Source: Raja brachyura
Taxonomy: Eukaryota
Direction of reading: 5' to 3'
Assembly (NCBI GenBank): GCA_963514005.1
Contig: OY740792.1
Location: forward strand, 27,466,001 to 27,530,000
DNA length: 64,000 nucleotides
Below the pieces are notes generated by a model. That model did not search any database and was not told the origin of the DNA. It was given only the letters and a program-made list of their open reading frames with translations. This document shows positions 8,386 through 57,890 of this stretch, in pieces; the stretch's first letter is position 1; each line of letters begins with the position of its first letter. The translations under genes were made by a program, and so were the position numbers.

Positions 8386-8478
8386 CTGAAGAAGGGTCTC
8401 GACCCGAAACGTCACCCATTCCTTCTCTCCAGTGATGCTGCCTGTCCGGCTGAGTTACTCCAGCATTCTGTGTCTATC
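8386..8478 (+). mobile_element. Short Penelope-derived repeat with minimal hammerhead core (8386-8413)
   Basis: CTGAAGA-AGGGTCTCGACCC-GAAA-CGTC followed by the family body CCCATTCCTTCTCTCCAG..GAGTTACTCCAGCATT..GTGTCTATC. Confidence 0.7.
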
Positions 8479-9802
8479 ATCTGTAACACCATCAGCTGTC
8501 AAGTAAGTCCTGGGTGCAGGATACTGGAGTAGCTACAGAGGGGATGGATAATGATCTCTGTGGGACTCAGCCTGAGAAACTTGAACTGAAAACCCCTGCC
8601 TCTGAGGCATTAATTTTCACCAGATTCCCTGTTTTTAACCCACATTTGAAAAGGTCTGAGACAAGGACAACAAGGACAACATAACGTTTTATTATTTGGA
8701 TCAACCCCACTGCAAAATTGGTCTGGTTTGTAATCCACATCATATTCGGGCATCAGTCTGTATTCATGCTACTCCAGAGTCACCTCTAGTGGATGAGAGT
8801 GGAACAACGTATGCATGGAACAGGAAACTAGTTGCTCGCTGCTTGGATTGTGGGGGCATCACGTTAGTCACCAGCCCAGGTGGTTCCACCTCAAGACCTC
8901 CAACTCCAAGCTGTCGTGCTCAATTAAATAACCAACTGAATTATATGTTTCAAGTTAATAAACAAACCCGGCCAAAGAAACATTATTCCAAAAAAAACGT
9001 TGGCTTTCTTCATGAGGGAAAATGATATTTAAATACATTACCCTCTCCAATTAATTTGGTTTAATGCAACGCCGACTGTGCTCCTGAGTCTGTTTCTCTC
9101 TCGTCACCTGACCCATTGAGTCTTTTTCAGAAGAATTACATCTTTATTTTCCCCTGCTGCCTTCTGCCTGCAAATGTTTACCCGGCTTCTCCACAAACAC
9201 ACAATACGGGGATCATGTCCATTGCCCCCATCCCCTATTGGGTTTAGTCCTAACTACTTGCAGCTATGATTCGGGCTTTTACTCTCCACTCTTTCCACAC
9301 CTGCCCCTTCAAATCCCTTCTTACGTTTGATAACAAACAAAATAGCCACAGTTTATCAAGCACATTTTGTCAGCACTGTCCAATCCAACAATTGAATTGA
9401 ATACTTTTATTGTTAACTGTGACAAGTCACAGTAAAATTATTTGAAATTTAATTTAGTGAAAGTCACCACATAAAGGCCGCTGACAAAGTTACAAAGTAT
9501 CCTGCACTGGATACACCCACTGTAAGTTCTCCCCACCAGTCCTCCATTGTTCTCCCTCCCCCCCCCCCCCCCTTCTCACGGCAGTCCCCCCTCGCTGGGT
9601 CCTCCTTTGTTCCCTGCGGCACATTCTCAGAGTCCCACGTGGCCCGCCCTCGACCACCAGCCAACAGATCACAAGGTCTCAGGTGTTCTGGTCTGAACAG
9701 GTAAATCAACCTTTCCTTCAGGCTGCCTCATTGGTGCAGATACTGCACAAGGTGTGGGAATTGTGGAGCTTTGCTGTTTTTCACTGGAGCTTTCCAATCT
9801 CC

Positions 9803-10570
9803 TCAGCACTCCTCAGACCGGAATGCCGGGTTGTCCGTTCCACAGCTGGCCAGAGAATACTCAGAGAAACTGCGGTTTTCCGTCAAAATGGTGGCCCCAG
9901 AGACCAGACTGTTTCTATCCCATGGGTCCAGGGCGGAAGGGTGGACCTTGTTGTTGGAAAAGAACGAAGGACTCTTGTAACTGAGCAACAGCAGACCAGC
10001 CAGGAGGAGCAGGCCAGAAGAGAAGATGGCCACGTAGATGCCTGCACCAACCTCCTGGGCCTGTGGGGAGCGAGGTAGGCCGAACCGCGGCGGGAAGGCG
10101 ATGGAGCGGTTGCCAGTCACGGAGCTGAGGTTCCAGCCGGCAGGGATGATGACGCAGACTCCGGCCAGCAGGTGGAAGCACCCTGCGGCCCACATGGCCA
10201 GCCCGGCCCGCCCTCTGCCCAGGTAGACGCTCCACAGGCCAGAGGCAGCCGCAGCCTTCCCCAGAGCACCGGCAACGACGGCTGCCCCCATCAGCGGCTG
10301 AGCAGCGGCGATCTCCCACGGCACAAAGGCCTCTCCTACGGCCATCGCCTGACAGGACATCAGGCGGAGTGGCGGGGACGCCAGCCGGTTGCTGCAGAGG
10401 CAAGCCCTCCAGATGCCCACCCAGGCCACGCCCGAGTCAACCTCCGCCGACCTCACGTGCCACACTCTCCACTGGACCAGCCCCATGGCAATGGCGGCTC
10501 CGATCCAGCCCACCGCTCCCAGCACAAACCCCACCAGCTGGATCGGGGCGCCGCTGGGCCGCTGACCCAT
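9803..10570 (-). CDS. CLDN34: Claudin-34 (single coding exon, 255 aa)
   Basis: Four hydrophobic segments, claudin ECL1 signature W..WVGIWRAC..C (W-GLW-C-C type), GC/CpG-rich open frame. It lies downstream of SHROOM2 on the same strand, as CLDN34 does in human. Confidence 0.88.
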   Translation of the reverse strand: MGQRPSGAPIQLVGFVLGAVGWIGAAIAMGLVQWRVWHVRSAEVDSGVAWVGIWRACLCSNRLASPPLRLMSCQAMAVGEAFVPWEIAAAQPLMGAAVVAGALGKAAAASGLWSVYLGRGRAGLAMWAAGCFHLLAGVCVIIPAGWNLSSVTGNRSIAFPPRFGLPRSPQAQEVGAGIYVAIFSSGLLLLAGLLLLSYKSPSFFSNNKVHPSALDPWDRNSLVSGATILTENRSFSEYSLASCGTDNPAFRSEEC

Positions 10571-11196
10571 GACCTTTGAGGTCAGTGGGCAGGGGAGGTG
10601 AGGGGGGTTCGTCGCCAGGGTCGTAGAGGCCTGGATTCACAACAACACGGCGACAGAGCGAGCAGGAGTGGTGATGCGGGTTCACTGCTGGAACAACCTG
10701 AGAAGTTACGGGCTGAATGCTAAGCTGCGGGTTGCCTGGAAACGCTACAAACAATTACCGCCCACCGCACAGAGCTTTGTTAATGTTGCCTCTCGTTTTC
10801 TCAAGCTGCTATTGGTGTTGCGGCCACACCCAAAACAATGAGTGGTGGCAAATTACAGGCTTTACCTCCATATCAAGCAATAGCCCAGACCATAGGTCTG
10901 GTGGAAGCAGGTTCAGACGGTGAGCTTGGATGGGGATGTCAACAACAGGTTAAGGACCATTTAACCATTGACAGGAACCACTGGCAGATGGAGGAGGTGA
11001 CTGGAGCTCCATTGGACGATTCCCTCTTTGAGGATGACGGGCTCTTCCTGTGCTCTGCCCTGCTATGATGGCTGGCCGGTCCCCTTCATGCCAAATTGTG
11101 CAGCCTATTTCAAACAGCTGATGGACCTGTAATGCTGGTGGGAGTCAGAGTTCCCTTCAGCTGTGCAGAGCAGCCTTTTCCCGACCAGATAGCATG

Positions 11197-13292: not shown

Positions 13293-13405
13293 CGCAGAAG
13301 CTGGTTTAAACTGAAGATAGACACAAAAAGCTGGAGAAAAATACTATTCCTTTTCTTCAGAGACGCTGTCTGTCCTGCTGAGTTACTCCAGCTTTTGTGT
13401 CTATC
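13293..13405. mobile_element. Short Penelope-derived fold-back element with 10-bp TSD
   Basis: GATAGACACAAAAAGCTGGAG / CTCCAGCTTTTGTGTCTATC inverted arms; TTGACACAAC duplicated at 13283-13292 and 13406-13415. Confidence 0.6.
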
Positions 13406-14250: not shown

Positions 14251-16679
14251 TGCCACAGTGAGGTACCAGCAGTCTGCAGTCTGAAGAAGGGTCTCGACCC
14301 AAAACGTCACCCTTTCCTTCTCTCCAGAGATGCTGCCTGTCTGAGTTACTCCAGCTTTTTGTGTCTATCTTCAGTCTGAAGACTGACACTGGCTGGGTGA
14401 GGCTGAGAATTGTTCACTGATTCTGCAGGCGGCTTCTCAGTGTTTCTCCTGTGGTGATAGGTGCTTTGGAAAGGTTGTGGTCTCCAAACTAGCCTAGGGT
14501 TTTAGTGAACAATCCTGCATGCACCATTGTCAGTGAGGGAGGGTGGGTATCTTCATTCAGCCAAGTCCCTGCACACTGGCATCCATGTACTACCCCTTGC
14601 ATATCTGACTTTATCCTGTCAATTACTCTCTTATAAAAAAAAGCACAGGTTTTGCACATACTGGAGTGTAACAAAGTTCTGTGCAAAGTATTAGTCGCAG
14701 ATTCTAACAGTTCTGGCAGTTCCTTTTATTGACTCACTTTTGGAGATCTGGACGTCACTGCAAAATTCAACATTTATTTTCCACTTTGTACTAATTACAC
14801 TTGAGAAGGTGGTCGTGAACTACTGCCTTCTTGAATCGTTATAGTTCTTATGCTAAGGATGTCCCCACGATATTAAACGTCAAGGGTGTTTTAGTGTCAT
14901 GTGTCCTGAAACAGACCAACAAAATTCTTACGTTAATTCTTAGACCTCATAATAATGATGGAACCATGATAGATTTACATATCAGGATGGTGTGCAACTT
15001 GAAGGGGAATCTGCAGGCGGTGGTGATCTCACGCCCTAGTCCTTCTCGACGGTAGACGTGAGGTATGGTGCATCTGTATGGTACTCTCCTGGGAGGTGCT
15101 GCCACAGTTACTTAGCAAGTGACTGCAATGCCTTTGGTCAACAGTGCACTCTGTGGCCACTGCACGTCTGTGGTAGAGAGAATGATGGGGGGGAAATCAA
15201 ATTAGCTACTTTGTCCAGGATAATGTTGTCATCTAGATTGGTGAGGGAGAGATTTTCACCTATTCTTCTGACTCAGTACACCATGTGGGGCTTACACTAT
15301 ACCCATTTATGTCCACAGTGTGGTCACCACATTTGTCCATCAATTATTTACGCAAGATACAAAGTTATCAGACTGTTGTGAGTTCTTTCTCATTGTGTTA
15401 CGATGGCATGTTAGGAAGCCATCTGCGTCGGTGAGGTTGGTGGTGGGGACATTGATGGAAGGTAGAAGGTGTTAATTAGGTTGACTGCTATGTTATTAGA
15501 ATCATACATCACCCATTGCTCTTGTGTATAATTCCTGCTCATATGTTCCCTTCAGTCCATGGCCCTCCATTCACCTGCTCTCCAAACAGGGCTGCCTCCC
15601 AGCTGCCTGCATGCCTTTCATCCAGCAGCCTAATTCCTTCTGCTGTGTGCAGTCTAATTCCCTGCTGCCCAAAAGACAGGCCAAGACACAAAGTTATCAG
15701 GGGCTGCCTGCCAGGGTATGTGGCAGGGCATGTGGCACTGGCAGAGGCGCCATCTTCAGGATAAGGCCAGGACTGCAGCCCTCCAGGGGAATGGAGGGTG
15801 TTCCATACCATCATTCAAAGTCACTGGATTCTTCTTTTTATTACCACCACCTGGTCTCAATGACACCTACTTTGCAAATGTGAGCACACCTCAGAAAGCA
15901 CCTTATAAGCTTAAATATTTGAGTCTGGTGGTGATAATAGGAACTATCGAACTTCTTCAGACTTCTGCAGATTGAACAAGGGTCCCAGCCCGAAGTTTCA
16001 CCTATCCATGCTCTGCATCCCTGGCCTGCTGAGTTACTCCAGGACTTAGTGTCTCTTTTTGTAAAACAGCATCTGGAGTTCCTGGTGTCTCCATAGAAAT
16101 GCTGTTGCACACACCACATCTGCAGTCAAGCCCCTGATTTTATTGCTCATTGTCAGACAGGGTCGGTGTGTGTTCTTTCTCCCAGCTCAGTCCCCACAAT
16201 CAGCAGTCATCAACTAGTCTTTACACTGTATATGAGTCAGGGTTTGGGCATTTGTGTGTTGTCTGCTGGCTTCCTTCAAACACAGGGATATGGGTGGATG
16301 TGACTCATGTGGCTCAAACTTAGTGACTGATCCAAACTGGTCTTGGACAAATTGGACCTCTGGGAGAAATTTCTTCCACACATCAAGGGCATTGCTGTGC
16401 TTCACTCTTTGATAATGGCCAAAAGAGACCACAAGAAGTGACAGGCCCAAATTATTATAGTATGCAATTAATCCAATCTATAAAATAACACACTGAGGCA
16501 TTCAGATCCATCCCACCAGCACAGCACCTTGCCTCTGATTTGCCATTGAATCATTGAAGGAAGTCATTTAGTACAATGTATTCATGTCAGGAAAGAATTA
16601 TTTATTCATTTTCCTGAATCTGAGCATCACCCACATGCCTTTATTGCCCATCCCTACAAGTATAAATGGGTAATAAAGG

Positions 16680-17250
16680 CTTGTGGGTGATGTTATGTTA
16701 CAGTTGTACAAGACGTTGGTGAGGCCACATGTGGAATTTAGTTTTGGTCACCCAGTTGGAGGAGGGATGATGTTAAACCTGAAAGAGTGCAGAGAAGATT
16801 TACAAGGATGTTGCCCGGACTTGAGGTCCTGAGCTATAAGAGAGAGGTTTGGCAGATTAGGATTTTATACCTTGGAAAGCAGGGAGATGATGGGTTATTT
16901 TATAGAGATGTACAAGGGGAATAGATAGTTTAGATGCACAGTCTTTTACCCAGAGTAGGGGATTCAAGAACCAAAGGTCAGAGGTTTAAGGTGAGAGGGG
17001 AAAGTTTTAATAGGAACCCGAGGGGAAACCTTTTCACAGAGGGTGGCAGGTATATAGAACAAGCTGCTAGACGAGGTAGTTGAGGAAGATACTATAACAA
17101 CATCTAAAAGACATTCGGACAGGTACATGGATAGAAAAGGATGAGGGATATGGGCCAAATGTGAGCCGGTGGGACTAGTGTAGCTGGGGCATCTTGGATG
17201 GCATGGGCAAGTTGGGCCGAAATGCATTTTTCCATGTTGTATGACAATTC
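16680..17250 (+). mobile_element. Old CR1 3' fragment
   Basis: Decayed LYKTLVRPH..VQRRFTRMLPGL coding sequence and CR1 3' UTR. Confidence 0.7.
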
Positions 17251-17705: not shown

Positions 17706-17906
17706 TGTGTAGGAAGGAACTGCAGATGCTGGTTTAAACTGAAGATAAACACAAAATGTTGGAGTAACTCAGCGGGACAGGCAGAATCTCTGGAGAGAAG
17801 AAATGGATGATGTTTCGAATAAGGGTCGCGACCCGAAACCTCACCCATTCCTTCTCTCCAGAGATGTTGCCTGTCCTGCTGACTTACTCCAGCATTTTGT
17901 GTCTAT
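17706..17906. mobile_element. Penelope-derived fold-back element with about 11-bp TSD
   Basis: Inverted arms centred near 17820; CCTCT(A/C)GACCC at 17695-17705 and 17907-17917. Confidence 0.65.
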
Positions 17907-19375: not shown

Positions 19376-20369
19376 CACGGTAAGAAAGCGGCCACATTAA
19401 TTGTTATTTGTAGTTACAACCTTTTAGATCTTTACTGCAATGTATCTCACTGACCTATCCAGGAGAGGAATCCTGAAAAACTCACCATTCACCCATCTCT
19501 TCAAACCTTCGGCAGGCTCGTGTCCTGTTGCTGATCTCTCCACATCTTTCAGATATAATCTTCCGCACTACCTTACTATTTTCCAGACTGTATTCTCACT
19601 CCAGCTTTTTCGTTGATTTATATCTCTCCCTATTTCCCTTTCCCAGAAGGTTCATTGGGTGACATTGATCCGGGCGACGTTTGGTCGGTTTGTGCTCTGA
19701 ATTCTGGAGGCAAGTGGTGATGAGCGTTAGTTCCCGATATATAGGAAACTGAGCTATGCCCGCATAGGATATGTGTAGGAAGGATCTGCAGATGCTGGTT
19801 TACACTGAAGATGGATATGTGGCCACCTATTCCCTCAAGGTATGCCTACTGCCATGTCTGGAGTATTAGCTGAGCTGTGGCTTCCCCCTTGAGCCGTTTC
19901 CAACATCTGCACCTCAGCAAAGTGGTGACGGATTCTTGCCTCTGGGTTACCATGGTTTCTAACTGTGAGATCACATGACATCACCTTCATGGTAACAAAG
20001 GGGAGGGTTGATGTTGTCCCAGGTTGAGCGCCCATGTAACACCAACCCTTCAAAGTACAGCCCTGGGATACTGTGGTGCAATTTAAATCTGAGCAATCAC
20101 AGATGGGATCTACTGTTACACTAAATGTTTTTGTTTCCCAATCTCTCTGAAGTCATTGTTTGGAACTTCTGCACTAATACTGAAATGGATGGGGCAAAAT
20201 GCTTGCTTCTCAGCTCAAGACTTGTATATAAAATTATTCTATTGCCCTGGGCTCTGGACTGGTCCATTTTGTAAAACTGAAGAAGCATTGGAGGGAATAT
20301 TAAACATGAGCACACACTGGCAAGAGTCATAGAAAACCCACTGCCCACAATCTAGAGTTGACTCATTTC

Positions 20370-21099: not shown

Positions 21100-22220
21100 C
21101 ATCATGACTTACCTGCCTTGGGAATTCACCTCAGCTATCCTGACAGCAGTTTACATGCCTCCCCATGTTGATGTTAAGCTTGCTCTGAATGAACTGTACT
21201 CTGCCATCAATAGCCCAGATGCAAAACATCCCAAAGCCGTGGTCATTGTTGCCAGGGATTCAATCAAGTCAACCTCTGGAGCAAACTACCAAAATACTAT
21301 CAGCATGTCTCTTGTCCCACCAGCAGGCCAGAACACCTGCAGACTGTGGCATGGTCTGAATACTATAACTGGCTGCAAAGTGAAGTCAGGCAGCATCGCT
21401 GGCGATAGTGCAGTCTTACCTGACGAATTTATTGCATTTGATGCTCGATTTGAACAGGTCAACAGGGTGTTGACATCCATCCCGTCAGATTCGAATGTGC
21501 CTTTTCCCAGGGTCGCTGTTGCAGCAGATAGTTTGGCCTATCCGAGGGTAAACCCATGAAAAGCAACAGGCCCGGACGGAGTCCCAAGCCGCGCCCTTGG
21601 GAACTGCGTGGACCAACTAGCGAGAGTTTTGACGAAGATTATTAACCTCTTCTAACTCCGTGCTGAGGTACCCACCTAGTTCAAGATCTCAAAAAGTAAG
21701 ATCTCATGCCTTCATGAACACTGTTCAGTGACCTTAACATTCACCATCATGAAGTGCTTCAAGAGGCTGGTTATGACACACATTCAATCCAGCCTAACAA
21801 ACAACCATGATCTGCCACCATAACAGGTGATACCATCTCCCTGGTCCTATAGACATCCCTGGAACACCTGGATATGAAGGTCACCCACGTCAGACTCCTA
21901 TTTATGGACGGTAGACACAAAATGGTGGAGTAACTCAGCGGGACAGGCAGCATCTCTGGAGAGAGGAATGGGTGATGTTTCGGGTCGAGACCCTTCTTCA
22001 GACTATTCCTATTCATGGACTACAACTCTGCTTGTAATACCATTATACCAACCACGCTCATCTCCAAACTCATGAAACATGGAGTCAGCACTCGCCTCTG
22101 CAACTGGATCCTCGACTTCCTGACCAACAGACCACAATCAGTGAGAATATGTGACAAATAATCCTCTGCGATAATCCTCAACACTGGTGCCCTGCAAGGA
22201 TGCATTCTCAGCCTCCTACG
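21100..22220 (+). mobile_element. Rex1/Babar-like LINE remnant
   Basis: LPWEFTSAILTAVYMPP (APE), KATGPDGVP and [19 protein letters not shown] (RT) motifs, fragmented. Confidence 0.65.
21910..22006 (-). mobile_element. Hammerhead-core short element inserted in Rex1, 14-bp TSD
   Basis: Core at 21974-22001 (minus); TCCTATT(T/C)ATGGAC at 21896-21909 and 22007-22020. Confidence 0.7.
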
Positions 22221-22751
22221 ATACTCAATAGGGCAGTTTTGAAGGGCACGATGGACCTTGCCTACTGAGTCACATTGGCAAGGATGTGGTCCTAATACCT
22301 GGAAGGTGCAGTCGGCAATTCTAAGTACTTCTTTAGGCATCACCTTGCACTGGTAGACAAAATGTTCCAGGTGCACCAGAGAGTGCCTTTCACCAAGTTA
22401 ATGACCAACATTTGCTTCATCCGAACATTGAACAATCCATAGATGACGAGGGCGCAAGACTGCAGATTCTGAAATCTGGAGCAATAGGACAAACCGCTGG
22501 AAGAACTCAGCGGGTCAAGCAGCCTGTGTGGAGACAAAAGCTTGCATCAGGACCCTGCAACAGGAGAGAGTACAGAGGGGAAAGAGACAATGGACAGCAG
22601 TGAGAGGCAGGGGTGAGGCAGAAGTGGAAACAAATGAGTTAGGGTGATGGGCAGGAAGGGGAGGGGGGTGACTTGAGAGGCTAGTAGATGTTAGGGGAAA
22701 TCTTAAAAGATATAAGAACAGTAAACCCACTGCCCACAATCTAGAGTTGAC

Positions 22752-23723: not shown

Positions 23724-25972
23724 ATTCTGAATCTTCCGGTTTAACCTCTTTAGTGCATTGCAAGACACCCTCACTATTCAGTCTGGTCGACTATGAGTAG
23801 AAGGGAGAGAGGGAGTTTTTCTGAATGCAAACGTCCCAGTGCTTGGATGGCACAGTGGTAGTGGTCGGATTCAACCTAATTTCCTCACAAGGATAACATC
23901 TCCTCCCTCTAATCCCACTCGAATACCACAATCTCAATGAAATTTATTAGATTGTTGGGGACATAGCAATTTCAAACTACGACTTCTCCAAATATTAAAA
24001 TGTAATTTGATCTAACATGCATTCAATATGTTGATTCCAATTTTGTTTATGTTATTGACATTATGGCTGAACAATATGAGCTTTTAAAGGGCAATCATGA
24101 AGGAGATGAGACTAATGAACTGCTTTATTGTACCATGCTCACCACTGTACAGCTATTAACCCATGAAATCTAAGGCGTAGGTGGCTTCAGTAACATTGAC
24201 ATACGTTTGCAGATTTTATTGCAGCCACATGGTTGCGCTGTTGGGTTACATTGTATTTTTCAATTCTATATGGAGCCATACTCTACATATATAGGCCCTT
24301 CATCCCAATGGGTCCGTGCCAATCATCAAGCCCCCCCGTAGCACTAACTATACCAATACTCTTTCATTCTCATCAAACTCCTCCCCACTGATTCAACCAC
24401 TCATCTACCCACTCGAGGCAATTTAGTGAACAATTAACCCGCCGCCCTGAGGTCATTCCCATGAAACATTAAACCCTCCTGACGGCCCTTTGAGCAAAAA
24501 ACAAACTGCTGGAGGAGCTCAGCAATTCAGGCAGCATCTGACAGGGGAAATGGACAGACTGCACTTCGGGTCGGGACACCTTTTGCAGACTCCTAGCCCA
24601 CCGTTTGAACTGCCCGTAGACGCCATGACACTATTTTGAAGAGGATCAAAAGTGTTGTGGTTGAAATTTAACCCTCCCACATTTAATACACATCTGTAGC
24701 AATGTTTTGTGGGCAAATTAGTTGCCGCGTTTTCTGTAATCTCTCAAGAGGAATGCACATTGATATCCTGTACCACCAAACTGCTGCCACGTACTTAAAG
24801 GGCCTTTGTTAATGCAAAGAGAAGCCATGTACAAATAAAAGCCCTTCCTTCTTCCTTTCCATCAGTTATCCATGCTTCTCTCAATGTGGATCATTCCCAG
24901 AATTAAAATTCTGCATAAATGCTGGGTGCAGCTTCTTTGCACGTGTGCACATAATCACACCAAGCACCAAAACAAAATGTCTCACTATATGGAGTCGACA
25001 GAATTCTGAAATATAACAGACTAGCACCAGCCATCATTCATTCTGGGTTTTTTTAAGCCAAATTGTCTATCGGCTCAAGATTGCTCGAGAGCATTGCAAA
25101 ACTCCTGGCAGTATATTTTAAGTCACTGAAAGTAAAACCTTCTCTTCAACATCTGGGTGCAAGCAGATCCTGATCAGTGCTCGGCTGATAACATAGTTAA
25201 TTTGCTCTCCCACTCTTCACAAGATCAAACGCATTTTAGAAATGAAAGCTGAACCTCTTTGAGACTCAACGCGTATCCAGTTCCTTCAAGAGCTGAGCTT
25301 TCATCTTCAGGATTTAAAATGTGGTCTGAAACCCAAGCAGAGTTCAGGAAAGTCAGACCAGTCGAGACAAAAAGAATCAATAACCTTACATCGTCTGCTC
25401 TGTCAGAGTATAAGAATCTGTAGACCAAGGAAAACAAAATAAAATGCTTTGTTCCAATGACTACACCCTAAAATAACACTGTTGGCTTCTGTAACCACCT
25501 ATTTATTTAATTATGCCACAATAAATTAATTTTATGCACATTTAAAAAAAACAATTCAGTCATCACATCATTTAATGAATGTGTAATATTTACGTAAAGG
25601 AAGCATCCTGTACCGATTAGAATACAGGGTGACAAAGTACCAGATTCTTGCTCGACAGTAATAATGAAGATGTTCTTTGCATTCTTTTCAATTCAAGATT
25701 TGGTAAATTTTGGAGGGAAGGTGGAAACAGAATAGAGAATGTTAGTGCTTGTGACTGAAAATCCAGAAGCTTATGAACATTACACTTTCAATGACAGGGT
25801 ACTGTGCATTACTCTGAAGCTTCAACTCAGTATCTCAGTCCTTCAGGCATTTGGTCCAGAGCACTCAGCTCCCCGGGTGTACAGATCCAGCTATACCACT
25901 CACACCGGCAGGAAATGGGGAACACAGGCTGAAAGCACTTCAATGTCCATTTAGGGTTAACCCTTTTTGATT

Positions 25973-26242
25973 CTACTTTGGTTTACAGTCAAGGGGTAGG
26001 CTGTCCAGCAGGCACTTCAGCTGCTCCTCTCCCAGCTTGATCTTGTCCTCCAGCTCCCTCTGCTCAATGGTGAGGGCTGATTTCATTTTCACAAAATGTT
26101 CGTAGTCCTGGAGGAGCTCGTCGGTCAGGCAGCTGGACAGGATATCAAACACCAGCCGCTCCCTCCGGTCCAGGTTCTCCTTCAGCTCTTTTGCGTCTTC
26201 GTGCTGCCTCGTGAGGAGCTTCTGCTTTTGAGTTAGGGTCCG
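25973..26242 (-). CDS. SHROOM2: SHROOM2 terminal coding exon (end of ASD2)
   Basis: Acceptor TTTCTCAG| at 26243; [51 protein letters not shown] closely matches human SHROOM2; stop codon at 25973-25975. Confidence 0.93.
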
Positions 26243-26267
26243 CTGAGAAAGACAAACACAAGGTAAA

Positions 26268-26398
26268 CCAGTCTGAAGAAGGGTCTCGACCCGAAACGTC
26301 ACCCATTCCTTCTCTCAATAGATGCTGCCTGTTCCACTGAGTTACTCCAGCTTTTTGTGTCTATCTTTGGTCTCAACGAACATCTGCAGTTCCTTCCT
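26268..26398 (+). mobile_element. Hammerhead-core short element with 12-bp TSD next to the SHROOM2 last acceptor
   Basis: Consensus core 26273-26300; ACACAAGGTAAA duplicated at 26256-26267 and 26399-26410. Confidence 0.75.
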
Positions 26399-26423
26399 AC
26401 ACAAGGTAAATCCCCTCCATCTG

Positions 26424-26882
26424 AACTTGGAGATGTTGCATTCAATTCCCTCGTCCAAATCATTAATATATATTGTAAATAGCTGGGGTCCCAGCACTGA
26501 GCCTTGCGGTACCCCACTAGTCACTGCCTGCCATTCTGAAAAGGACCTGTTTACTCCTACCCTTTGCTTCCTGTCTGCCAGCCAGTTCTCTATCCACATC
26601 AATACTGAACCCCCAATACCGTGTGCTTTAAGTTTGTATACTAATCTCTTATGTGGGACCTTGTCGAAAACCTTCTGAAAGTCTAGATATAACACATCCA
26701 CTGGTTCTCCCTTATCAACTCTGCTAGTTCCATCCTCGAAAAATTCTATAAGATTCGTCAGACATGATTTACCTTTCGTAAATCCATGCCGACTTTGTCT
26801 AATGATTTCACCACTTTCCAAATGTACTGCTATCCCATCTTTAATAACTGACTCTAGCAGTTTCCCCACTACCGATGTTAGA
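26424..26882 (-). mobile_element. CR1 RT internal fragment
   Basis: [34 protein letters not shown]. Confidence 0.9.
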
Positions 26883-27014
26883 CACGGCACAGGTGTGGTC
26901 AAAGGCCACACAAACAGCAGCCAAGATCTGTATAAAACCTGGGTCTCTGAACCTGTGAGGCAGCAGAACTACCTGCTGTACCATCAGGCACACAGGCTAA
27001 AGGAACAATGGAGA

Positions 27015-27232
27015 CAGAAGACATTGCTGGAATCTTGAGCAAAAAAAAGTGCTGGCAGAACTCAGTCGGTCAGGCAGCACTAGTGGAAGAAAATGGATAG
27101 GTGACGTTTCAGGTCGGTATCTGCCTTCAGGCTGATCAGTCTGAAGAAGGATCCTGACCTGAAATGTCATCTGTCCATTTACCTCCACAGATACTGCCTG
27201 ACCTGCTGAGTTCCACCAGCACTTTGTTTTTA
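27015..27232. mobile_element. Penelope-derived fold-back element (decayed core at 27141)
   Basis: Inverted arms GTGCTGGCAGAACTCAG..CAGGCAGCA / TGCCTGACCTGCTGAGTTCCACCAGCAC. Confidence 0.6.
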
Positions 27233-27606
27233 GCTGAAGGAATAATGCTGACTGAAGTTAATGAGCAATGAACCATCAGCAGTAAAAATATCTTTGCATC
27301 CTGTCCAAAGCAAGAGCCCCTGAGCCTTTGGTTTAGGTGAGATTTGAGGGGTCAGTTTACTTGCCCAAATGCCAAAATCACCAAGATTACAGTTCTGCAG
27401 ATTTAGATCTCCCTCATCCTCAGCTGTTTTAAACTAAATGTGAATAAACCAACTGGACAGAATGGGAACATGGCTCCTGGATTGTTAGTCAAAGCCCTGG
27501 ACCATCAGCCCAGTATCACAAGCACTGCATCCAATCACATGGTGCTTGCCAGACCTGGCTCAGGTGTACAGAGATGTGCTGGGCAGAAGAATACAAACCC
27601 ACGTAC

Positions 27607-27879
27607 CCGCTCGTCGGGAGAGGCGCTCTCCTCCAAGGTGTTGAGGGCGTTCTCCACCCTGGCCAGCCGGCCAGACAGCGACAACAATAGGTTGACCACC
27701 TTGTCCAGATCTCCGATGAACATTCTGAACTTGTCAAACTCGTTGGGCTTGCAGACCTTCTTCACCACGTCCTCCACCTCGTCGCCCAGCAGGTTGTTGC
27801 CCTGGATGTCGTCCTGCAGGCTCTCCCGTGCCTCCCGCAGCACCTGCAGCTTCTTGCTTATACTGTCGATCAGCTCTTG
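27607..27879 (-). CDS. SHROOM2: SHROOM2 exon (ASD2), 273 bp, phase 0-0
   Basis: CCCGCAG| acceptor, |GTACGT donor; [51 protein letters not shown]. Confidence 0.93.
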
Positions 27880-29053
27880 CTGCGGGAACACAAACAGGAC
27901 CAAAGTATTAGAGACCTTGGGGCTTACAGACCCTAAACCAAGATCCTTGTGGTTACGGGGAAAGAGGCATACTGAAAATGGTTTGACATCTATTGTCAAT
28001 GCATCAGGCCTAGTTTTATCATCTGGTTTAATGTAGTTCATATCAGACGTGTCCCAAACTAAACCGATACTTTAACCAACAGCCACCAACTGGGAATCCA
28101 GGTATTGCCAACTGAATTTCTGGTCAATTCAATAAGCGACCATTCATAGATACCTTAGGTTGTGATCTCGATATTTATATGGGCTGTGCAAAGGAGGTTC
28201 CATTCAAATTAGTGGACCTGGTTAACACTGTAGTGTTGGCCACATGTGGCTGGTCAGTGACTATCTTTGGATCGCACTGGGCTACTGAATATGGGGGGGG
28301 ATTGACACCATTTTTCATTTTAGAAAGGGAATATGTTGGCACATCTAATCCGGCTCATAGGGCAATCCCATTTAACGAGAGACGCTCTTCCTATTGGTGG
28401 TGGGGTCAAGAACGCGAGGGGATAAATTGGCAAAGGAATCAGCAAATACATGGACAATCTTTGTTTACATTCTGTCTGTTTATGGTCCCGAATGCATTAC
28501 TTCCTTTGTTATGTTCAAAAGAAGCTGGATAGGAAAGTCAGTAAGTGTCAGGTTGGATGTGGATGGTGCAGATGTGGTATAGCTCTTGCACGGGGTAGCT
28601 ATAAACGATGGGCTGAATGGCCTCTTCTTCCCATTACCATTCTGTGATTCTTTACAAGCTGGATGCAGAAGCTTATGACTCTCCAGTTCAAGTCACTGAG
28701 CAGCTGGTTTGTTTCCTCAATAAAAGACCATATGTATAATGTAGAAGCAAGATGTGACCTTGTGTCTGTCTCACCATTCACTGACATCACAGCTGATCTC
28801 ACACTGCAAAATTAAACTTTAGATACAGCGGGTAAACAGGCCCTGTGTCCCACCAAACCCGCGCCAACCAGCATCATCCCATACACTAACACTATCCTAC
28901 ACACTAGGGACAATTTACAATTTTACCAAAGCAAATTAACCTATAAACTTGTATGTCTTTAAAGTGTGGGAGGGAACCAGAGCACCTGGAAAAATCCCAG
29001 AGAACATGCAAACTGTGTTTCTCTTTGTGTCTGTCTATATTTGGCTGGATTAC

Positions 29054-29219
29054 CTTCTTTTCGGTGAGATCATTGTTCAGCTCATCTTCAGAGTCCTCCT
29101 CTTCCTCCATTTGCTGCTGCATGTCCTTCATCTTATTCAGCAACTCGGCCTTTGGGGCAGATGTGCTGTAGTATATTGAGCTTGTGGTTAGGGACACTCC
29201 AATGGGTATGGTCTCTTCC
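29054..29219 (-). CDS. SHROOM2: SHROOM2 exon, 166 bp, phase 2-0
   Basis: CACCAG| acceptor, |GTAATC donor; [16 protein letters not shown] motif. Confidence 0.92.
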
Positions 29220-29789
29220 CTGGTGAAACACGGCCTAGAATTATTGCAGTACTCGGGCACCACAATCAAACTAACTTAGCACTTAAATGAAGATACAAGG
29301 AACTGCAAATGCTGCTTTACAAAAAAACAAGACGCAAAGAACTGGGGTAACTCAGCAGGTCAGGCAGCATCTCTGGAGGCGCATTTCTGAAAGAAGGGCC
29401 ACAACACGAAACGTCACCTGTCCTTGTCCTCCAGGGATGCGGCCTGACCCACTGAGTTACTCCAGTACTCAAAATGACCTTGAGTCAACGGCAGAAGTCC
29501 TACGATATAAAATGCAGCCATTGTGTGCTGCTGGGCTTCTCCCCCACCACTACTACCTGACAGGATCACTATCAGAGATGGGTTGAGGGCTTTGTGACCT
29601 ACAGTGGGCCAGCACTCATTCATGTATAAGCTGGGAAAGTGTAAGATTGCTCAACATCAATGAGATGAGGAAACATTTCTTCACCCAGAGTTGTGAATCT
29701 GTGGAATTCTCTGCCACAGAAGGCAGTGGAGACTGAGGCTAGTCCAAGCGTGCCACTCATTTTAAACAGCTGCTTCTCCACACATCAAT

Positions 29790-30060
29790 CCACACCACAA
29801 TAGATGAACATTATGACCAAGATTCATGTTTCAGGCGTGGAGTCCATCACAAGCATAACTCTCCCCACCTTCAAATGTATCTACATGAGGTGCTGCCTCA
29901 AGAAACTGGCATCTATCATCAAGGATTCACCCGCCCTCCCCACCACCCGCATCCCTCTTCTCGCTGCGGGCAGAAGGTAAAAATCCTTGCCGTCCACACC
30001 ACCAGGACCAGGAACAGCTACTTTCCTACAACTATCAAGTTCTTGAAAATCCAGATCCTA
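29790..30060 (+). mobile_element. Rex1-like LINE 3' remnant
   Basis: Decayed SIIKD..HP..TTRTRNSYFPTTIK C-terminal motif. Confidence 0.5.
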
Positions 30061-30424
30061 TCTTGGCAATGGAACAGTATGGATCACCTACTGCATCACC
30101 AAGAGGTGATCCATAATTGTGCATTTTTGCAGACTTTTTCTTTTCACACCAGTTAGAGAGATGCCAATGGACAGTCTTGCCTTCCCTGGAGAAATAAACA
30201 ACACCTAATAAATACTCAAGCACCACATGTCCTGGTTTTTTATTTTGTTAGTGGTTTTTAGCAACCTTCAACATCCTGTCCATATAGGTGCAAATCTCAA
30301 ACAATGCGCTGGAGGAACTCAGCGGGTCAAATAGCGTTGATGGATGGAATGGAATGGTCCTTACTTTCTGCATATGATTGGGTTACATAACGAGAGAATG
30401 GCCAGCTAATTAGCACAGCTACTT

Positions 30425-31150
30425 AGAAACATAGAAAAATAAGTGCAAGAGTAGGCCATTCGGCCTTTCGAGCCAGCACCGCTATTCAATATGATCATGG
30501 CTGATCATCTAAAATCAGTACCCTATTCCTGCTTTTTCCCCCATATCCCCTGATACCTTTAGGCCAAAGAGCTAAATCTAACTCTCTTGAAATCATCCAG
30601 TGAATTGGCCTCCACTGCCTTCTGTGGCAGAGAATTCCACAGATTCACAACTCTCTGGGTGAAGAAATGTTTTCTCATCTCAGTCCTAAATGTCCTAGAT
30701 CCTCGGTCCCCTAGTATTTCTGGGAGATTGGTTCTGTCTTCCCCAGTGAGGACAGAACCAAAGTACTCATTTAACTGTTCTGCCATTTTCTTGTTTCCCA
30801 TTATAAATTCACCTGTCTCTGATTGTAAGGGACCTACACTTGTCTTCACTAATTTTTTTCCTTTTTATCTACCTAAAGAAGCATTTAGTCTGTTTTTATA
30901 TTCCCCACAAGCTTTCTTTCATGCTCTTTTCTCCCCCCTCTTAATCAACCCCTTTGTCATCCTCTGTTGAGTTCTAAATTTCTCCCAATCTTCCGGTTTG
31001 CTGTTTCCTCTGGCCAATTTATATGCCTATTCCGTGGATTTAACACTATCCTTGATTTTCCTCATTAGCCATGGTTGAGCAGCCTTCCCCGTTTTATTTT
31101 TTTGCCAGACAGGGATGAACAATTTTTGGAGTTCGTACATGCGGTCTTTA
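30425..31150 (-). mobile_element. CR1 with large internal deletion
   Basis: 3' tail at 30425; the ORF joins ..LPEILGDRGS directly to FRTEMRKHFFTQRVV, so the RT core is missing. Confidence 0.85.
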
Positions 31151-31824
31151 AACTTCAATGCTCCAGTGACCCAGGTTCAATCCTGGCCTCTGGTCTTGTC
31201 TGTGTGAAGGTTACACCTTCTCCCTGAGGCTTAAGTGAGTTTCCCCCAGACAATCCGGTTTCTTCCTGGCTTGCAGGTTGGTTAACCGACTGGCAGAAAT
31301 AGCCACAGAGCAGGTAGGGGACAAAAAGTATCGAGAGGGAAAGTTGATGTGCATGTGAGAGAGAATGTGGGAGAGAATTACTGAAAATCAGGAGAAGGGA
31401 AATAGAAATGATGGAATTGTTCTGCTGGAAGACGCGGGCAGGGACCTAAAGGGCCAAGCCGCCTCCTGTCTTGTGATAAGTAAGCAATGGTAGTACTTGA
31501 CCCCAACAGCAGCAAAGGTCTGACTGTACTTAGGAAGATCTCTAATGTTTTGAGGTTGGTCGAAGCACTGAGACCTAACATGCATTTATCTCCGAGCCAG
31601 CACATCATCATAGTAGGCTGTGCGGCTCCCCGGCTGCAGCCCATTAGAGCCACAGGGGCACCTGTTTAATTGCAGAGAGGTATTGTTCTGTCTGAGTCGC
31701 CAACAAACTGCTGGGGTCTTATTTCTATGTCAGTGAGTCACAGGGCTGTTCAGTAGGACACTGAAAGGAGCCGCAATAATACTTCTTTGAAACTGTCCTT
31801 GCCTGGACCTCTTCTGACACTGTG

Positions 31825-35169: not shown

Positions 35170-35204
35170 TTCGTGAAGAGCCCGCCGGCACGCATGCGCG
35201 ACAT
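35170..35204 (+). repeat. DIRS left inverted-repeat core
   Basis: Exact reverse complement of 40332-40366. Confidence 0.9.
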
Positions 35205-35361
35205 ATCGTCGCAACGCATTGCTGCCGACAGCTGGCGGTGGGGCGCGCTCCTCGCCAGCCCTTCAAAAGGAGCCGCTTAGGTAAGTTAAACTCACCTTAA
35301 GTTGGTTGGCCCTTGCTGTCGGTTTTGTCTTTCAGCAAGGGTGCGGATTGGAGTGTTCAGA

Positions 35362-37047: not shown

Positions 37048-38978
37048 CCATGGAGGTAAGGCGGTCTGGGTTTCTTTCCCCTGCCCCTTTAATCTCACAT
37101 GTGGGAGGGCGACTCCGGTTCTTTGCTAAAGCTTGGGTATCAGTTACTTCGGATAAATTTGTGTTACAAAATGTTCGGGGTCATTCTATTGAATTTATTG
37201 ACGGCAAAGTTCCTCCATCCCAGCATATGCCTAAACGGAAGTTTACGCTGTCTGCTGTTGAGCAGGCAGCAGGCACGGCTGAAATTTTTCGTTTGGAACA
37301 AAAAGGCGTGATAGAGAAAACTATTCACGAGCCCATTGAATTCGTCTCCAATATATTTACTAGACCAAAAAAGGATGGAGGTTGTCGGGTGATTATTGAT
37401 TTGACCCAGTTGAATACCTTTGTAACATATACACATTTCAAAATGGACACCTTTGAGACAGCCAAATCACTGATTTCGCATGGTTGCTTTATGGCATGTA
37501 TTGATTTAAAAGATGCATGCTATTCAGTGTCCATCCGGAAACATCACCGGAAATTTTTGAAATTTGTCTGGATGGATCAGCTCTGGCAATATCGAGCCTT
37601 ACCAAATGGGCTTACTACTGCCCCTAGGCTCTTTACTAAATTACTTAAACCTATTATGGCCAAATTACGCATAGAACATCATATTGTAATGGCTTATTTG
37701 GATGATATTCTGATTATTGGCAATACTCTGGAAGCAGCTGAAAGCGCTGTTTTAGCAACTGTTACTATATTTCAGCAACTGGGGTTTATAGTTCATCCAG
37801 AAAAATCGAAGTTTCACCCATCCCAGGTTATGGATTATTTGGGTTTCACGGTGGACTCTATTCAAATGAGGGCCACCATTCCATTTCACAAGGTGGAGGA
37901 TGTCTCCCTTGCATGTCAGGATCTCGCATCCGCCAGTATACCATCTATTCGGCATACAGCTAAGATAATTGGGAAAATCGTAGCTTTATTTCCAGCAGCC
38001 CGGTTTGGGCCTTTACATTATCAAAACCTGCAAAGGGCCAAAATTATTGCGTTAAAAAAGAACGCTGGTCATTTTGACAGACCTATGGAGCTGCCTTCTG
38101 ATGCTAAGGTTGAGCTCCAATGGTGGGTGTCCAATATTGGCAGGGCATTCAAACCCATTGTTGTGCCCAATCCGGTGGTATATTTGCAAACTGACGCAAG
38201 CTCTCTAGGCTGGGGAGCTGCGGACAGCTCTTCTAGTTGTGGAGGCAGGTGGGATCCCCTTGAAGCTAGCATGTTGCTAGTACAAGGGATTAACTATTTG
38301 GAGCTGCTTGCAGCATTTCACGGACTGCGGGCATATTGTGCTCATCTTAGTGGCACTCATGTCCGTCTCCAAATAGACAACACCACAGCGGTGGCATATT
38401 TAAACCATATGGGCGGTACCAGGTCAGTCTCTTGTGACAAATTGGCTAATACTATTTGGTGCTGGTGTATTAATCGAGATATTTGGATTTCAGCCACCTA
38501 TTTGCCAGGTAGGCTTAATACTGTGGCAGACACCAGGTCACGCAAATTCAATGATAGTATTGAGTGGATGCTGCATCCTCAAATATTTGCCCAAATTACA
38601 GCCAAATTTGGCCAACCGGATATCGACCTTTTTGCGTCCCGGTTGAACCATCAGGTACCGACATATGTTTCATGGGAACCAGACCCTGGGGCATTAGCGA
38701 TTGATGCATTCTCGCTAGACTGGGGGAAGTGGTTTTTCTATGCATTCCCCCCGTTTTGCCTCATCAGTCGGGTATTACAAAAAATCAGGATGGATTCTGC
38801 CAGAGGCATTCTTGTCATACCCGACTGGCCTACACAGCCTTGGTATCCGGTGGTCTCTGACATGATTAGTCAACCTTGGGTCCCTCTAGAGGGTTGCCCG
38901 CATGTGGTTTCTCACCCTGTCTCAGGGGAGTTACACCCCTGCCATGCCTATCTAAAATTACTGGCTTGCAGGTTCTGA
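36969..38978 (+). CDS. DIRS pol: reverse transcriptase, RNase H and Dam-like methyltransferase domain (first ATG 37050)
   Basis: RT: KKDGGCRVIIDL, DLKDA, LPNG, YLDD (37695-37706), YLG. RNase H: TDAS, INYLEL, IDN, VAD..SR. MT: DLFAS..DAF..W..YAFPPF. Confidence 0.92.
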   Translation: MEDEAILSSAQPSTSSATQVCQGPPVTMEVRRSGFLSPAPLISHVGGRLRFFAKAWVSVTSDKFVLQNVRGHSIEFIDGKVPPSQHMPKRKFTLSAVEQAAGTAEIFRLEQKGVIEKTIHEPIEFVSNIFTRPKKDGGCRVIIDLTQLNTFVTYTHFKMDTFETAKSLISHGCFMACIDLKDACYSVSIRKHHRKFLKFVWMDQLWQYRALPNGLTTAPRLFTKLLKPIMAKLRIEHHIVMAYLDDILIIGNTLEAAESAVLATVTIFQQLGFIVHPEKSKFHPSQVMDYLGFTVDSIQMRATIPFHKVEDVSLACQDLASASIPSIRHTAKIIGKIVALFPAARFGPLHYQNLQRAKIIALKKNAGHFDRPMELPSDAKVELQWWVSNIGRAFKPIVVPNPVVYLQTDASSLGWGAADSSSSCGGRWDPLEASMLLVQGINYLELLAAFHGLRAYCAHLSGTHVRLQIDNTTAVAYLNHMGGTRSVSCDKLANTIWCWCINRDIWISATYLPGRLNTVADTRSRKFNDSIEWMLHPQIFAQITAKFGQPDIDLFASRLNHQVPTYVSWEPDPGALAIDAFSLDWGKWFFYAFPPFCLISRVLQKIRMDSARGILVIPDWPTQPWYPVVSDMISQPWVPLEGCPHVVSHPVSGELHPCHAYLKLLACRF

Positions 38979-52669: not shown

Positions 52670-52955
52670 GACGTGCAACGTGATCGTTTCGTTGAATACC
52701 TCCACTCAGTCCACCTTAACCTACCTGATCTCCCACTTGCTCAGCACTTTAACTCCCCCTCCCATTCCCAATCTGACCCATTCTGTCCTGGGCCTCCTCC
52801 ATTGTCAGAGTGAGGCCCGGTGCAAATTGGAAGAACAGCATCTCATATTTCACTTGGTTAGCTTACACTCCAGCGGTATGAATATTGACTTCTCTAACTT
52901 GCTTTCCCTCTCTCTCCATCCACCCCCCCCTTCCCAGTTCTCCCACCAGTCTTAC
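52670..52955 (+). mobile_element. Penelope 3' remnant
   Basis: SVLGLLHCQSEARCKLEEQHLIFHL matches 57760-57850. Confidence 0.65.
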
Positions 52956-54831: not shown

Positions 54832-55054
54832 GGGTACACAAACTGCTGGAGAAACTCAGCGGGGGCAGCAGCATCAATGGAGCGAAGGAGATAGGTAACG
54901 TTTCAGGGGACGTGTCCTGACCCAGTCTGAAGAAGGGTCTCGACCCGAAACGTTGCCTATCTCCTTCGCTCCATAGATGCTGCTGCACCCGCTGAGTTTC
55001 TCCAGCATTTTGTGTACCCTCGATTTTCCAGCATCTGCAGTTCCTTCTTTAACA
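54832..55054. mobile_element. Fold-back hammerhead-core element with 15-bp TSD
   Basis: Core at 54927-54954; CAAAAGCATGTTCTT at 54817-54831 and 55055-55069. Confidence 0.75.
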
Positions 55055-56182: not shown

Positions 56183-56470
56183 CCTCTTCTGTTGGGCAAA
56201 TTACACCCTCAGCAGGAAGTTTCCACAACTCTGAAGTGCTAAGTCAGAGAAGTCTCTTGACAACACACTTAACCTCAACCCCTCGCTTCAGAGCAGCGAG
56301 CTCACAATGCACGTTTTCTACAGCGGGCTGGAATTGCTGGAATGATTCACTCAAGTGACAATCCCACAGCTATTCCACCCACAAACCTCTCTCTCTCTCT
56401 CTCTGTTTCATTCCCTCCCTCTCTCCCTCACTGACTGCCCCACCCATCCCACGAAGCTGATTGGCTGACG
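56183..56470 (-). promoter_or_regulatory. Candidate internal SHROOM2 promoter and non-coding first exon
   Basis: AGG|GTAAGT donor at 56182; AGCCAATCAG CCAAT box (56457-56466) and CACCC box upstream; no recognisable transposon sequence in this stretch. Confidence 0.35.
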
Positions 56471-56729
56471 GTCCACATCAGAGCACTGACTGCTCTGACC
56501 TCATCCTGTCAAAAGGCTGAGATAATCCTGGACTTCAGCTTTGCTGTGAAAAGACTTTCCCTTCAAAAAGTTCCACATATACTTTGAAAAGGGTGAAAGA
56601 AAATGTGCACATTAAAGCCAAAAGCATTTAGCAGTCCTGAGTTTGTGGCTTCCATTCTCAAAACTGCTCATTCCACATACACCCTTATAAATTAACCCAA
56701 TTCCCCACAACTGATAATCTGCTCCACGT

Positions 56730-57890
56730 GGCAGAACTTGTCCTCACCTGCCAACAACTTCTCTAGATTCATCTCACTTTCTTCAAGTTAAAGGTGTTAG
56801 CCATGGGCACTCGCATGGGCCCCAGCCATGCCTGCCATTTACTGGTTATGTCGAAGAATCCTTGTTCCAAACGTACCCAGGCACCATGCCCCAACTCTTT
56901 CTTCACTACATCGGCAACTGCATCAGGGCTGCCTCCTGCATCCATACTGAACTCAACATAGACACAAAAAGCTGAAGTAACTCAGCGAGACAGGTAGCAT
57001 CTAGAGAGAAGGAATGGGTGTTGTTTCGGGTCGGGACCCTTCTTCATACCGAACTCGTTGATTTCATTAACTTTACCCGGAGCTTCCACCCTACCCTCAC
57101 ATTCATTTGGACTTTGACACCTCTCTCTCCTTTCTTGATCTCTGTCTCCATCACAGGGGAGGGACTATAAACTGATGTTTACTACAAACCCACCGACACC
57201 CACTGTTTTTTCGACTACACCTCCTGCCACCCTGTCTCTTGCAAAGATGCTATTCCTACTCTCAATTTCTTTGCCTCTGCCGCATCTGCTCCCAAGATGA
57301 CGTTTTCCTTTCTAGGACATCCGAGGTGTCCTCTTTCTTTAGTAAACAAGGTTTCCCCGCCAGCTGTCATAGACGAACCCCTCACCCACATCCCCTCTGT
57401 GTTCCATAGTTCTGTTCTCACACCTTCTCCGCCCAGACTGAACAAGGATAGTGTTCCCCTGGTCCTTACCTTTCACCCACCAGCCTCTGCTTCCAACACA
57501 TAATTTTCTAACATTTCCACCACATTCAATGTGATCTTGCCAGTAGCCACATCTTCCCATCCCAGAGGTTCATGTGCACCTCCTCTAACCTTACCTGCTA
57601 CATTTGGTTTTCCCGATGTAGCCTATTTTACATCCGGGAGACCGAGCATAGACTACGTGACTGTTTCGCCAAACACTCGCTGTTGGTCCACCATGGCCTA
57701 CTGGATCTCCTGATTGTTAACTGGTATAACTCCTCTACCCATTCCCATACTGACCTTTCTGGCCTGGGCCTCCTCCATTGCCAGAGTGAGGCCACACACA
57801 AACTGGAGGAACAGCACCTCATATTCCACTTGCATAGCTTACACCTAATGGTATGAACATTGAATTCTCCAATTGTAGTTAACTAATCCA
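56730..57890 (+). mobile_element. Penelope-like element remnant (RT and GIY-YIG endonuclease)
   Basis: AMGTRMGPS RT motif; CTSSNL..I..SRC..FYI.ET..RL..F.KH GIY-YIG-like segment; interrupted at 56955-57044 by a short element with a 12-bp TSD. Confidence 0.8.

Follow-up and report, generated by a model that had tools for sequence, protein, structure and literature searches.

The window analysed here is a stretch of 64,000 nucleotides from Raja brachyura (contig OY740792.1, positions 27,466,001 to 27,530,000). It contains a claudin-family open reading frame (ORF), Shroom ASD2 exons on the minus strand, CR1-like LINEs (long interspersed nuclear elements), as well as a tyrosine-recombinase retrotransposon. 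It also contains many copies of a short non-coding unit with a hammerhead ribozyme motif, and the origin of this unit in Penelope-like elements (PLEs), the sister group of telomerase, is our subject. In the numbering of the unit, +1 is the C of CUGAAGA, and cleavage is predicted between +28 and +29.

A strict hammerhead descriptor matches at 8386, 26273 and 54927 (plus strand) and at 22001 (minus strand) and nowhere else in the window, with no match in 100 dinucleotide shuffles. These are exactly the copies called intact in an earlier note on this DNA, which gave the last as 21974-22001. With nhmmer, 26 arms reach at least 15 bits, compared to a maximum of 6.9 bits in 10 shuffles, and a covariance model of the unit has 28 matches at E<=1. 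All decayed copies listed in the earlier note are among the profile matches. When hand-called stubs are taken in, a total of 29 arms, each with the motif or part of the unit, could be placed at about 21 loci, with 2 weak ones in addition (Table 1). This is about one per 3 kb, so that the earlier estimate of one per 5 kb was too low. The repeats cover about 90-225 bases and are built from single or inverted arms of about 95-135 nt. The short units described earlier are thus real, but the longer ones of about 200-225 bp are two head-to-head arms and not one long unit.

Table 1. Penelope-derived insertions and remnants in the window.
Position	Strand	Description	Evidence
51..406	-	frameshifted GIY-YIG remnant with CX4CxxC linker, the inverted arm of a Neptune-type Penelope truncated at its 5' end; continues past the window start	tblastn with P0001/P0002
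422..1421	+	Penelope GIY-YIG C-terminus (insert at ~478-845), pyrimidine-rich 3' UTR, decayed untailed hammerhead pLTR at 1334-1421; sole ORF-linked arm	
8385..8476	+	untailed single arm of subfamily A with intact core and ACGU	weak 9-bp TSD (p=0.31)
13293..13405	both	head-to-head pair, no hammerhead in either arm; - arm tailed, + arm from about +30	10-bp TSD
14277..14372	+	untailed single arm of subfamily A, AAAA in place of GAAA	TSD, microhomology at both ends
15948..16095	+	tailed arm at 15969-16089, decayed; upstream of it a very short stub in inverted orientation	TSD not significant
17706..17906	both	head-to-head pair; tail on - arm, + arm untailed	11-bp TSD (p=0.09)
19776..19812	-	tail-only insertion, about +91 to +127	9-bp TSD
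21910..22006	-	single arm; intact core, stem III ACAU; untailed	14-bp TSD
22458..22720	-	tailed arm, decayed, following a pyrimidine-rich stretch of ~160 nt	
24491..24591	-	decayed single arm; untailed	TSD not convincing
26268..26398	+	best-preserved copy: 2-bp stem I, core, stem II, ACGU, GUC, 3' hairpin +64..+79, tail	perfect 12-bp TSD
27011..27232	both	head-to-head pair, junction -5/-5; tail on - arm, + arm untailed	15-bp TSD, 2 mismatches (p=0.09)
29293..29469	both	head-to-head pair; tail on - arm, + arm untailed	TSD not significant
30298..30356	-	decayed arm from about +30; untailed	
42490..42703	both	head-to-head pair, junction a near-palindrome around +1; tail on - arm, + arm untailed	9-bp TSD
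45253..45340	+	old weak arm	15.8 bits
46903..47032	+	single tailed arm, subfamily of the ORF-linked arm; broken core	no TSD found
48861..48970	-	single tailed arm, subfamily B, from +4	perfect 15-bp TSD
49440..49547	+	decayed single arm; untailed	no TSD found
52682..52950	+	Penelope GIY-YIG C-terminal remnant split by CR1-like LINE; downstream pLTR not found	
54832..55054	both	head-to-head pair, subfamily B; + arm tailed, its hammerhead intact with a GUU triplet; - arm without tail	perfect 15-bp TSD
56955..57044	-	single untailed arm within older Penelope RT ORF	12-bp TSD duplicating host HTEL codons
56704..57900	+	older Neptune-type Penelope RT/thumb/GIY-YIG remnant, host of the 56955 insertion; pLTR not found	

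At 422-1421, a GIY-YIG remnant is followed by a pyrimidine-rich untranslated region (UTR) of about 290 nt and then by a unit (the copy at 1337, correctly placed at the end of a Penelope remnant by the earlier note), while an inverted ORF arm lies at 51-406. Because the remnant runs via the UTR into the unit, we assign the unit as the pseudo-long terminal repeat (pLTR) of a Neptune-type Penelope element. That the short copies are such pLTRs, inserted without the ORF by target-primed reverse transcription (TPRT), we hold with high confidence. The arrangement at 51-1421 is that of a usual 5'-inverted Penelope insertion. The remnants combine a reverse transcriptase (RT) with a C-terminal GIY-YIG domain and a linker of the CX2-5CxxC form, and inverted 5'-truncated copies with a 30-40-bp tail at one end and a target site duplication (TSD) are found, all of which are Penelope characteristics. 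They match the related proteins P0001 and P0002 in tblastn, for which Pfam gives RVT_1 and GIY-YIG; the decayed Penelope ORFs of the window have no Pfam match themselves. The best named relative is a protein from Mobula hypostoma with 43% identity. The linker, CX4CxxC, marks the Neptune or the Nematis type, which no tree separates here, and Neptune is preferred because this clade is widespread in vertebrates. Only one of the three ORF remnants has kept a hammerhead pLTR downstream (1334-1421). A second read-through arm is probably present at 22458-22720, where the base composition of the flank resembles that of a Penelope 3' UTR.

A tree of 25 arms resolves 3-4 subfamilies, mostly with weak support, and both arms of each pair fall into one broad group. 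The ORF-linked arm at 1334 clusters, at a support of 87/82 that stays under the starred threshold, with the short arms at 15969, 29387, 29379 and 46906. This fits an origin of the short copies as by-products of several Penelope families. It may be argued that the short units are instead self-propagating non-autonomous masters, a "Penelope SINE" (short interspersed nuclear element) with an internal RNA polymerase II (Pol II) promoter, a hammerhead and RT start sites within about 135 nt, transcribed from short copies and mobilized in trans. The mechanism of integration would then be the same and only the RNA source would differ. Short loci do exceed ORF-linked remnants by about 19 to 3-4, the young subfamily A (copies up to 96% identical) has no ORF-linked member in the window, promoter-like motifs occur inside the unit (see below), and in rotifers pLTRs are described as sufficient for mobilization in trans (PMC3846280). 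However, 64 kb are too small to expect a full-length partner, a single 5' boundary is common to all 3-4 subfamilies including that with the ORF-linked arm, and many copies start at -1 to +6 and have lost the proposed initiator (Inr). We consider such masters unlikely, if by no means far-fetched.

The boundaries of the copies are those of true insertions. TSDs of 9-15 bp beat a random null of 300 loci at 9 of 20 loci (p<=0.033); at 17702 and 27005 the repeat is of borderline quality (p=0.09), and the remaining 9 have none beating the null. A wider search at six loci found no TSD adjoining the element. The eight direct-repeat pairs reported earlier were all recovered in place. They represent host sequence, because they differ at every locus and because one of them duplicates codons of a host ORF: at 56955-57044, the protein alignment has a gap of 34 residues in the frame of an older Penelope RT, bracketed by duplicated HTEL codons. 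That the direct repeats belong to the element itself is ruled out, and each TSD-bounded copy is a separate insertion. The AT content of the TSDs is mildly raised (0.60 vs 0.54). The best hammerhead copy lies antisense in the last Shroom intron. It precedes the apparent last splice acceptor by about 20 nt (26235-26398), and its TSD falls within the pyrimidine tract.

The 3' ends fall at two positions, about +91 to +93 or +126 to +131, and the difference corresponds to the 30-40-bp tail of Penelope elements (about 40 nt here). Six head-to-head pairs were counted, leaving aside the 15948 stub and the 1-1421 inversion, and in all six exactly one arm is tailed (p=0.015 under independence); among unpaired arms, 6 of 15 carry the tail. 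At 19776-19812, the tail was inserted by itself. Four of the pairs (17706-17906, 27011-27232, 42490-42703 and 54832-55054) fold as hairpins of about 90-100 bp with -105 to -152 kcal/mol and could be sources of double-stranded RNA if transcribed. Two of them give Rfam matches of the microRNA (miRNA) type (17761-17890 and 54878-54973), which correspond to the inverted arms.

The 5' ends are clustered. Of 20 arms which reach the 5' edge of the hammerhead, 18 stop at -6 to +6, where the downstream stopping rate predicts a probability of 0.052 (p~1e-21; arm 22538 scored as read-through), and a harsher count still gives 12 of 17 (p~2e-12). Ribozyme cleavage as a rule for the ends was rejected, only 2 of 29 arms starting near the cut, at +27 to +31 (13344 on the plus and 30356 on the minus strand). 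This is not above chance, and these two arms possibly copy cleaved RNA.

These ends bear on the question of whether the units are non-LTR retrozymes, as had been suggested before, i.e. monomers excised by the ribozyme, circularized and reinserted. Non-LTR retrozymes (PMC7229834; 10.64898/2026.07.22.740005) are likewise non-coding, carry a type I hammerhead, are related to pLTRs and occur as dispersed monomers, in one case in a chondrichthyan (10.64898/2026.07.22.740005), and the palindromic stem III and the two arms from about +30 would be in line with this. As described in these sources, however, retrozymes are built of tandem 150-450-bp units, have canonical hammerheads and form circular RNAs, in contrast to the single or inverted arms with a minimal hammerhead found here. 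The window has no tandem arrays of the unit (TRF gave 2 unrelated arrays), the 6-bp helix I and the loop-loop contact of a canonical type I hammerhead are absent from the unit, 18 arms begin upstream of the core with an intact cut site, and two near-cut starts among 9 internal ones are close to chance (about 0.5 expected). The units have the characteristics of Penelope pLTRs and lack the tandem arrangement, the canonical hammerhead and the cut-site ends of retrozymes, and we regard reinsertion of excised monomers as very improbable. What persists from the earlier proposal of a ribozyme-carrying Penelope derivative is the Penelope origin and the independent insertion with true TSDs, but not the retrozyme, since tandem arrays are absent and the ends are not at the cut site.

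By its sequence, the motif belongs to the minimal type I hammerheads found in Penelope elements. The core CUGANGA ... GAAA ... UH with a closed stem II is present in the four strict matches, together with the marks of the Penelope type: an extra base after A9, the G10.1-C11.1 pair and a palindromic stem III at 15.2-16.2. The type had been recognized correctly in the earlier note, but the palindrome is ACGU in only three of the four, the copy at 22001 having ACAU. Stem I is indeed very short, with 2 bp in the window copies, and the copy at 8386 lacks its -2 base. The cleavage triplet is GUC at 26273 and GUU at 54927. Among 15 arms which span the core it is intact in 5, and only 26273 and 54927 retain the core, the stems and ACGU.

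Several results are unfavourable for an active ribozyme in these copies. The core is better conserved than the rest of the unit (0.90 vs 0.82, p=0.024), a modest excess which drops to p=0.055 when CpG columns are left out, and the stem of the 3' hairpin at +64 to +79 is conserved as well as the core (0.92). Covariation among 21 window arms is not significant, the consensus fold of 8 tailed arms has 3 pairs only and no covariation, and folds of single arms are no better than those of shuffles (z from -1.3 to +0.7). For 26273 and 54927, a competing hairpin (+9..12 with +29..32) is predicted with P 0.95-0.99 and stem II with about 0. A dimer in ribozyme form is predicted at -6.1 kcal/mol, as compared to -22.3 kcal/mol for the minimum free energy structure. 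No hammerhead family was matched in Rfam scans, not even when a 251-nt slice was run at E<=10. Ribozyme activity of the window copies is therefore only putative.

The same hammerhead was found once outside the window. A protein scan of prokaryotic genome contigs, which have no exact DNA match to the unit, returned a single locus, positions 43-1360 of a public contig (L001) with a distant Neptune-like Penelope ORF and a hammerhead pLTR. The contig belongs to a bacterial genome bin and is probably animal DNA carried into that bin. The hammerhead (L001:1242) is in identical register, 131 nt past the ORF match. Its stem I has 3 bp and differs on both sides by a G-C to C-G swap, with a U-A to C-G change in stem II. 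Such compensatory changes are suggestive of the hammerhead fold, but they remain below significance, as 35-52 of 500 shuffles are as high with five sequences. The Rfam hammerhead models look insensitive to the minimal form because this copy was also missed.

Much of this resembles what has been reported. Penelope minimal hammerheads are described by Cervera and de la Pena (2014, PMC4209133): most are solo copies, "probably related to truncated PLEs", and opposite-strand pairs lie 100-700 bp apart. The core boxes, the extra base between 9 and 10.1, G10.1-C11.1, the palindromic 15.2-16.2 and the pLTR location are shared with the unit described here, as is the 2-bp helix I with D. virilis, while helix II has 4-5 bp here versus 7-8 bp in Schistosoma. 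The available text of PMC4209133 does not name chondrichthyans or analyse ends, TSDs and tails of solo copies. In the rotifer Adineta vaga (Arkhipova et al. 2013, PMC3846280), a 31-bp tail occurs on one of two inverted pLTRs, and head-to-head pLTRs, palindromic junctions, TSDs of 8-10 bp and an Inr-like motif in the pLTR are common to both systems. There, however, the inverted pLTRs flank the ORF and several solo pLTRs are given without TSDs, whereas ORF-less units with TSDs are the dominant product here. Solo and opposite-strand Penelope hammerheads, the one-arm tail and vertebrate pLTR-derived monomers, including one in a chondrichthyan, are thus already in print. What we add is a well-supported family of Penelope pLTR insertions with a minimal hammerhead, the class itself being known. 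The pLTR repeats are probably contained in curated repeat libraries (Repbase, Dfam), which is an expectation and not a result. In the literature searched, which left out most subscription papers, we found no prior description of tail-only inserts, of a promoter overlap or of a 5' boundary that is fixed.

Biochemical work on a Poseidon protein from Anolis, PAc (Frangieh et al. 2024, PMC11167929), provides a model for the 3' ends. The protein cuts and extends both strands, is predicted to act as a dimer, and has two internal RT starts which bound the tail. Uncut RNA is the dominant substrate for insertion, and the ribozyme, which cleaves only with the protein, is dispensable. The hammerhead upstream of two tail-defining RT starts and the uncut ribozyme in the inserted copies are paralleled here. 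PAc belongs to the Poseidon clade and not to the Neptune type, and the only mildly raised AT content of the TSDs is another difference.

We consider it probable that the copies are target-primed pLTR insertions with two internal priming sites on the RNA and a fixed 5' boundary. A Penelope RT/GIY-YIG protein would make a staggered cut in the target, and RT would be primed at either of two internal sites of the RNA, which lie about 40 nt apart. Priming at one DNA end would lead to a single arm, tailed or untailed; priming at both ends, one per site, would lead to a one-tailed head-to-head pair joined by microhomology; and a distal-site cDNA stopped at the proximal site would be left as a tail-only insert. 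The cDNA would pass the uncut hammerhead and halt at the fixed boundary, which among the options may most likely be the 5' end of an RNA whose internal Pol II promoter overlaps with the ribozyme (run-off, with a strong-stop-like cDNA). In the short copies, the hammerhead would be a passenger, its likely role being the protein-assisted dimeric processing of the RNA of the parent element. "Twin priming", "strong-stop" and the idea of a cap-derived G are borrowed by analogy.

As to the nature of the boundary, the A of CAGT may be taken as a start site. With this as +1, both 26273 and 54927 have an Inr of 7/7, CGANC at +18 to +22, a motif ten element (MTE) of 9/12 and a downstream promoter element (DPE) of 5/6 at the strict spacings listed in PMC4581360. 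Only 2 of 127,920 window positions pass the joint test for Inr, MTE and DPE. This spacing favours run-off at the 5' end of an RNA, but the match is partly accounted for by the hammerhead sequence itself, as a hammerhead-constrained null gives P=0.044. That the boundary is a transcription start is a tentative reading, for which the case is nearly balanced.

The boundary might also be an RT stop within a longer RNA, where structure, a protein on the RNA or the start of the pyrimidine tract would halt the enzyme; the copies would then be extremely 5'-truncated 3' pLTRs. Pyrimidines make up 80% of the upstream UTR as far as the boundary, two arms read through, the ends are scattered over 13 nt, and 5' truncation is described as common among PLE insertions. 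However, the RT would have to traverse the hammerhead hairpins and then stop just past them, the Inr/MTE/DPE spacing would be left without a reason, and it would be unexplained why, of 5 arms that start at -3, 3 have a G instead of the C ahead of AGT (a weak point, with no confirming TSD). We find a stop of this type rather unlikely, though a serious competitor. A further candidate is a 3' splice site, CAG|T at -2/-1, as in the Penelope element of D. virilis, with splicing or spliceosome binding setting the boundary. Ahead of the hammerhead, 1294-1336 holds a pyrimidine tract and CAG, and the D. virilis intron is reported to end at helix I. No upstream exon is common to the arms, though, several arms retain the CAG, the UTR has a single GTRA donor candidate (at 1044), and L001 lacks the AG, so that splicing appears distinctly improbable.

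Run-off from an internal start within a Penelope RNA, which we prefer, has to be weighed against several unfavourable points. Neither of the young subfamilies, A and B, has an ORF-bearing partner in the window. In subfamily A, one frame is open from +1 through the tail (43 codons, 26273-26401 on the plus strand), as if an ORF overlapped the ribozyme; its translation is absent from 152 related proteins and a direct search was also empty, so that such an overlap is conjectural. The 5' positions were read by eye, and arms in a pair or subfamily are not independent. Three arms keep bases at -5/-4, upstream of the proposed A+1. The promoter match was made post hoc, with motifs mostly derived from Drosophila. 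L001 has no CAGT at the same place, and in D. virilis the start site is reported 121 nt upstream of helix I, where the intron's 3' end maps.

A more far-reaching reading would join these components. The first ~135 nt of the Neptune RNA would be at the same time a Pol II core promoter (Inr at the 5' edge of the hammerhead, MTE/DPE in stem II and the GAAACGUC core), a hairpin-restrained hammerhead and a two-site RT primer platform. On this 5' copy, a dimeric RT would prime both DNA ends, with one site used for each, and insert strong-stop-like cDNAs which keep their own promoter and could thus be re-amplified. We regard this as speculative and on balance doubtful. If true, Penelope elements would include a Pol II SINE class that encodes no protein, and their priming geometry would be recorded as fossils in the genome.

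The short pLTR insertions bear on how PLEs make inverted, tailed insertions. The two-start-site model developed in vitro can be tested on them by counting: whether pairs have one tail each, whether tails occur as inserts by themselves, and whether the 5' boundary is fixed. Abundant solo hammerheads in such genomes need not mean retrozymes or active ribozymes.

Several other features of the window were annotated. A single-exon claudin-family ORF (9803-10636, minus strand) is located downstream of the Shroom ASD2 exons (25973-43724, minus strand), an arrangement which we take to resemble the SHROOM2-CLDN34 neighbourhood. A DIRS-like tyrosine-recombinase retrotransposon (35143-40438) has three long overlapping open frames (585 aa, a 755-aa RT and a 361-aa integrase). 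Its 37-bp inverted repeat (35143-35179 / 40103-40139) is perfect, further internal complementary repeats extend to 40438, and the element looks young. A CR1-like LINE at 60161-62749 (minus strand) has an open endonuclease-RT frame of 862 aa, with many related fragments in the window. A fragment similar to U2 small nuclear RNA (34474-34527, minus strand; 28 bits, under the gathering score) directly follows a CR1 3' end. Two further elements are probably non-autonomous DNA transposons, a short one at 1630-2105 with perfect 45-bp inverted ends from TTAA, and an unrelated-looking insert at ~478-845 which splits the Penelope remnant. The Rfam scan at the hammerhead elements found no tRNA, 5S or 7SL head, A and B boxes not having been scanned separately. 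A second dispersed repeat family of about 200 bp is SINE-like and has about 11 copies (41579-41765, 6338-6498, 50956-51052 and others). Finally, an isolated hairpin at 16621-16696, unrelated to the hammerhead unit, has several weak matches to miRNA families.

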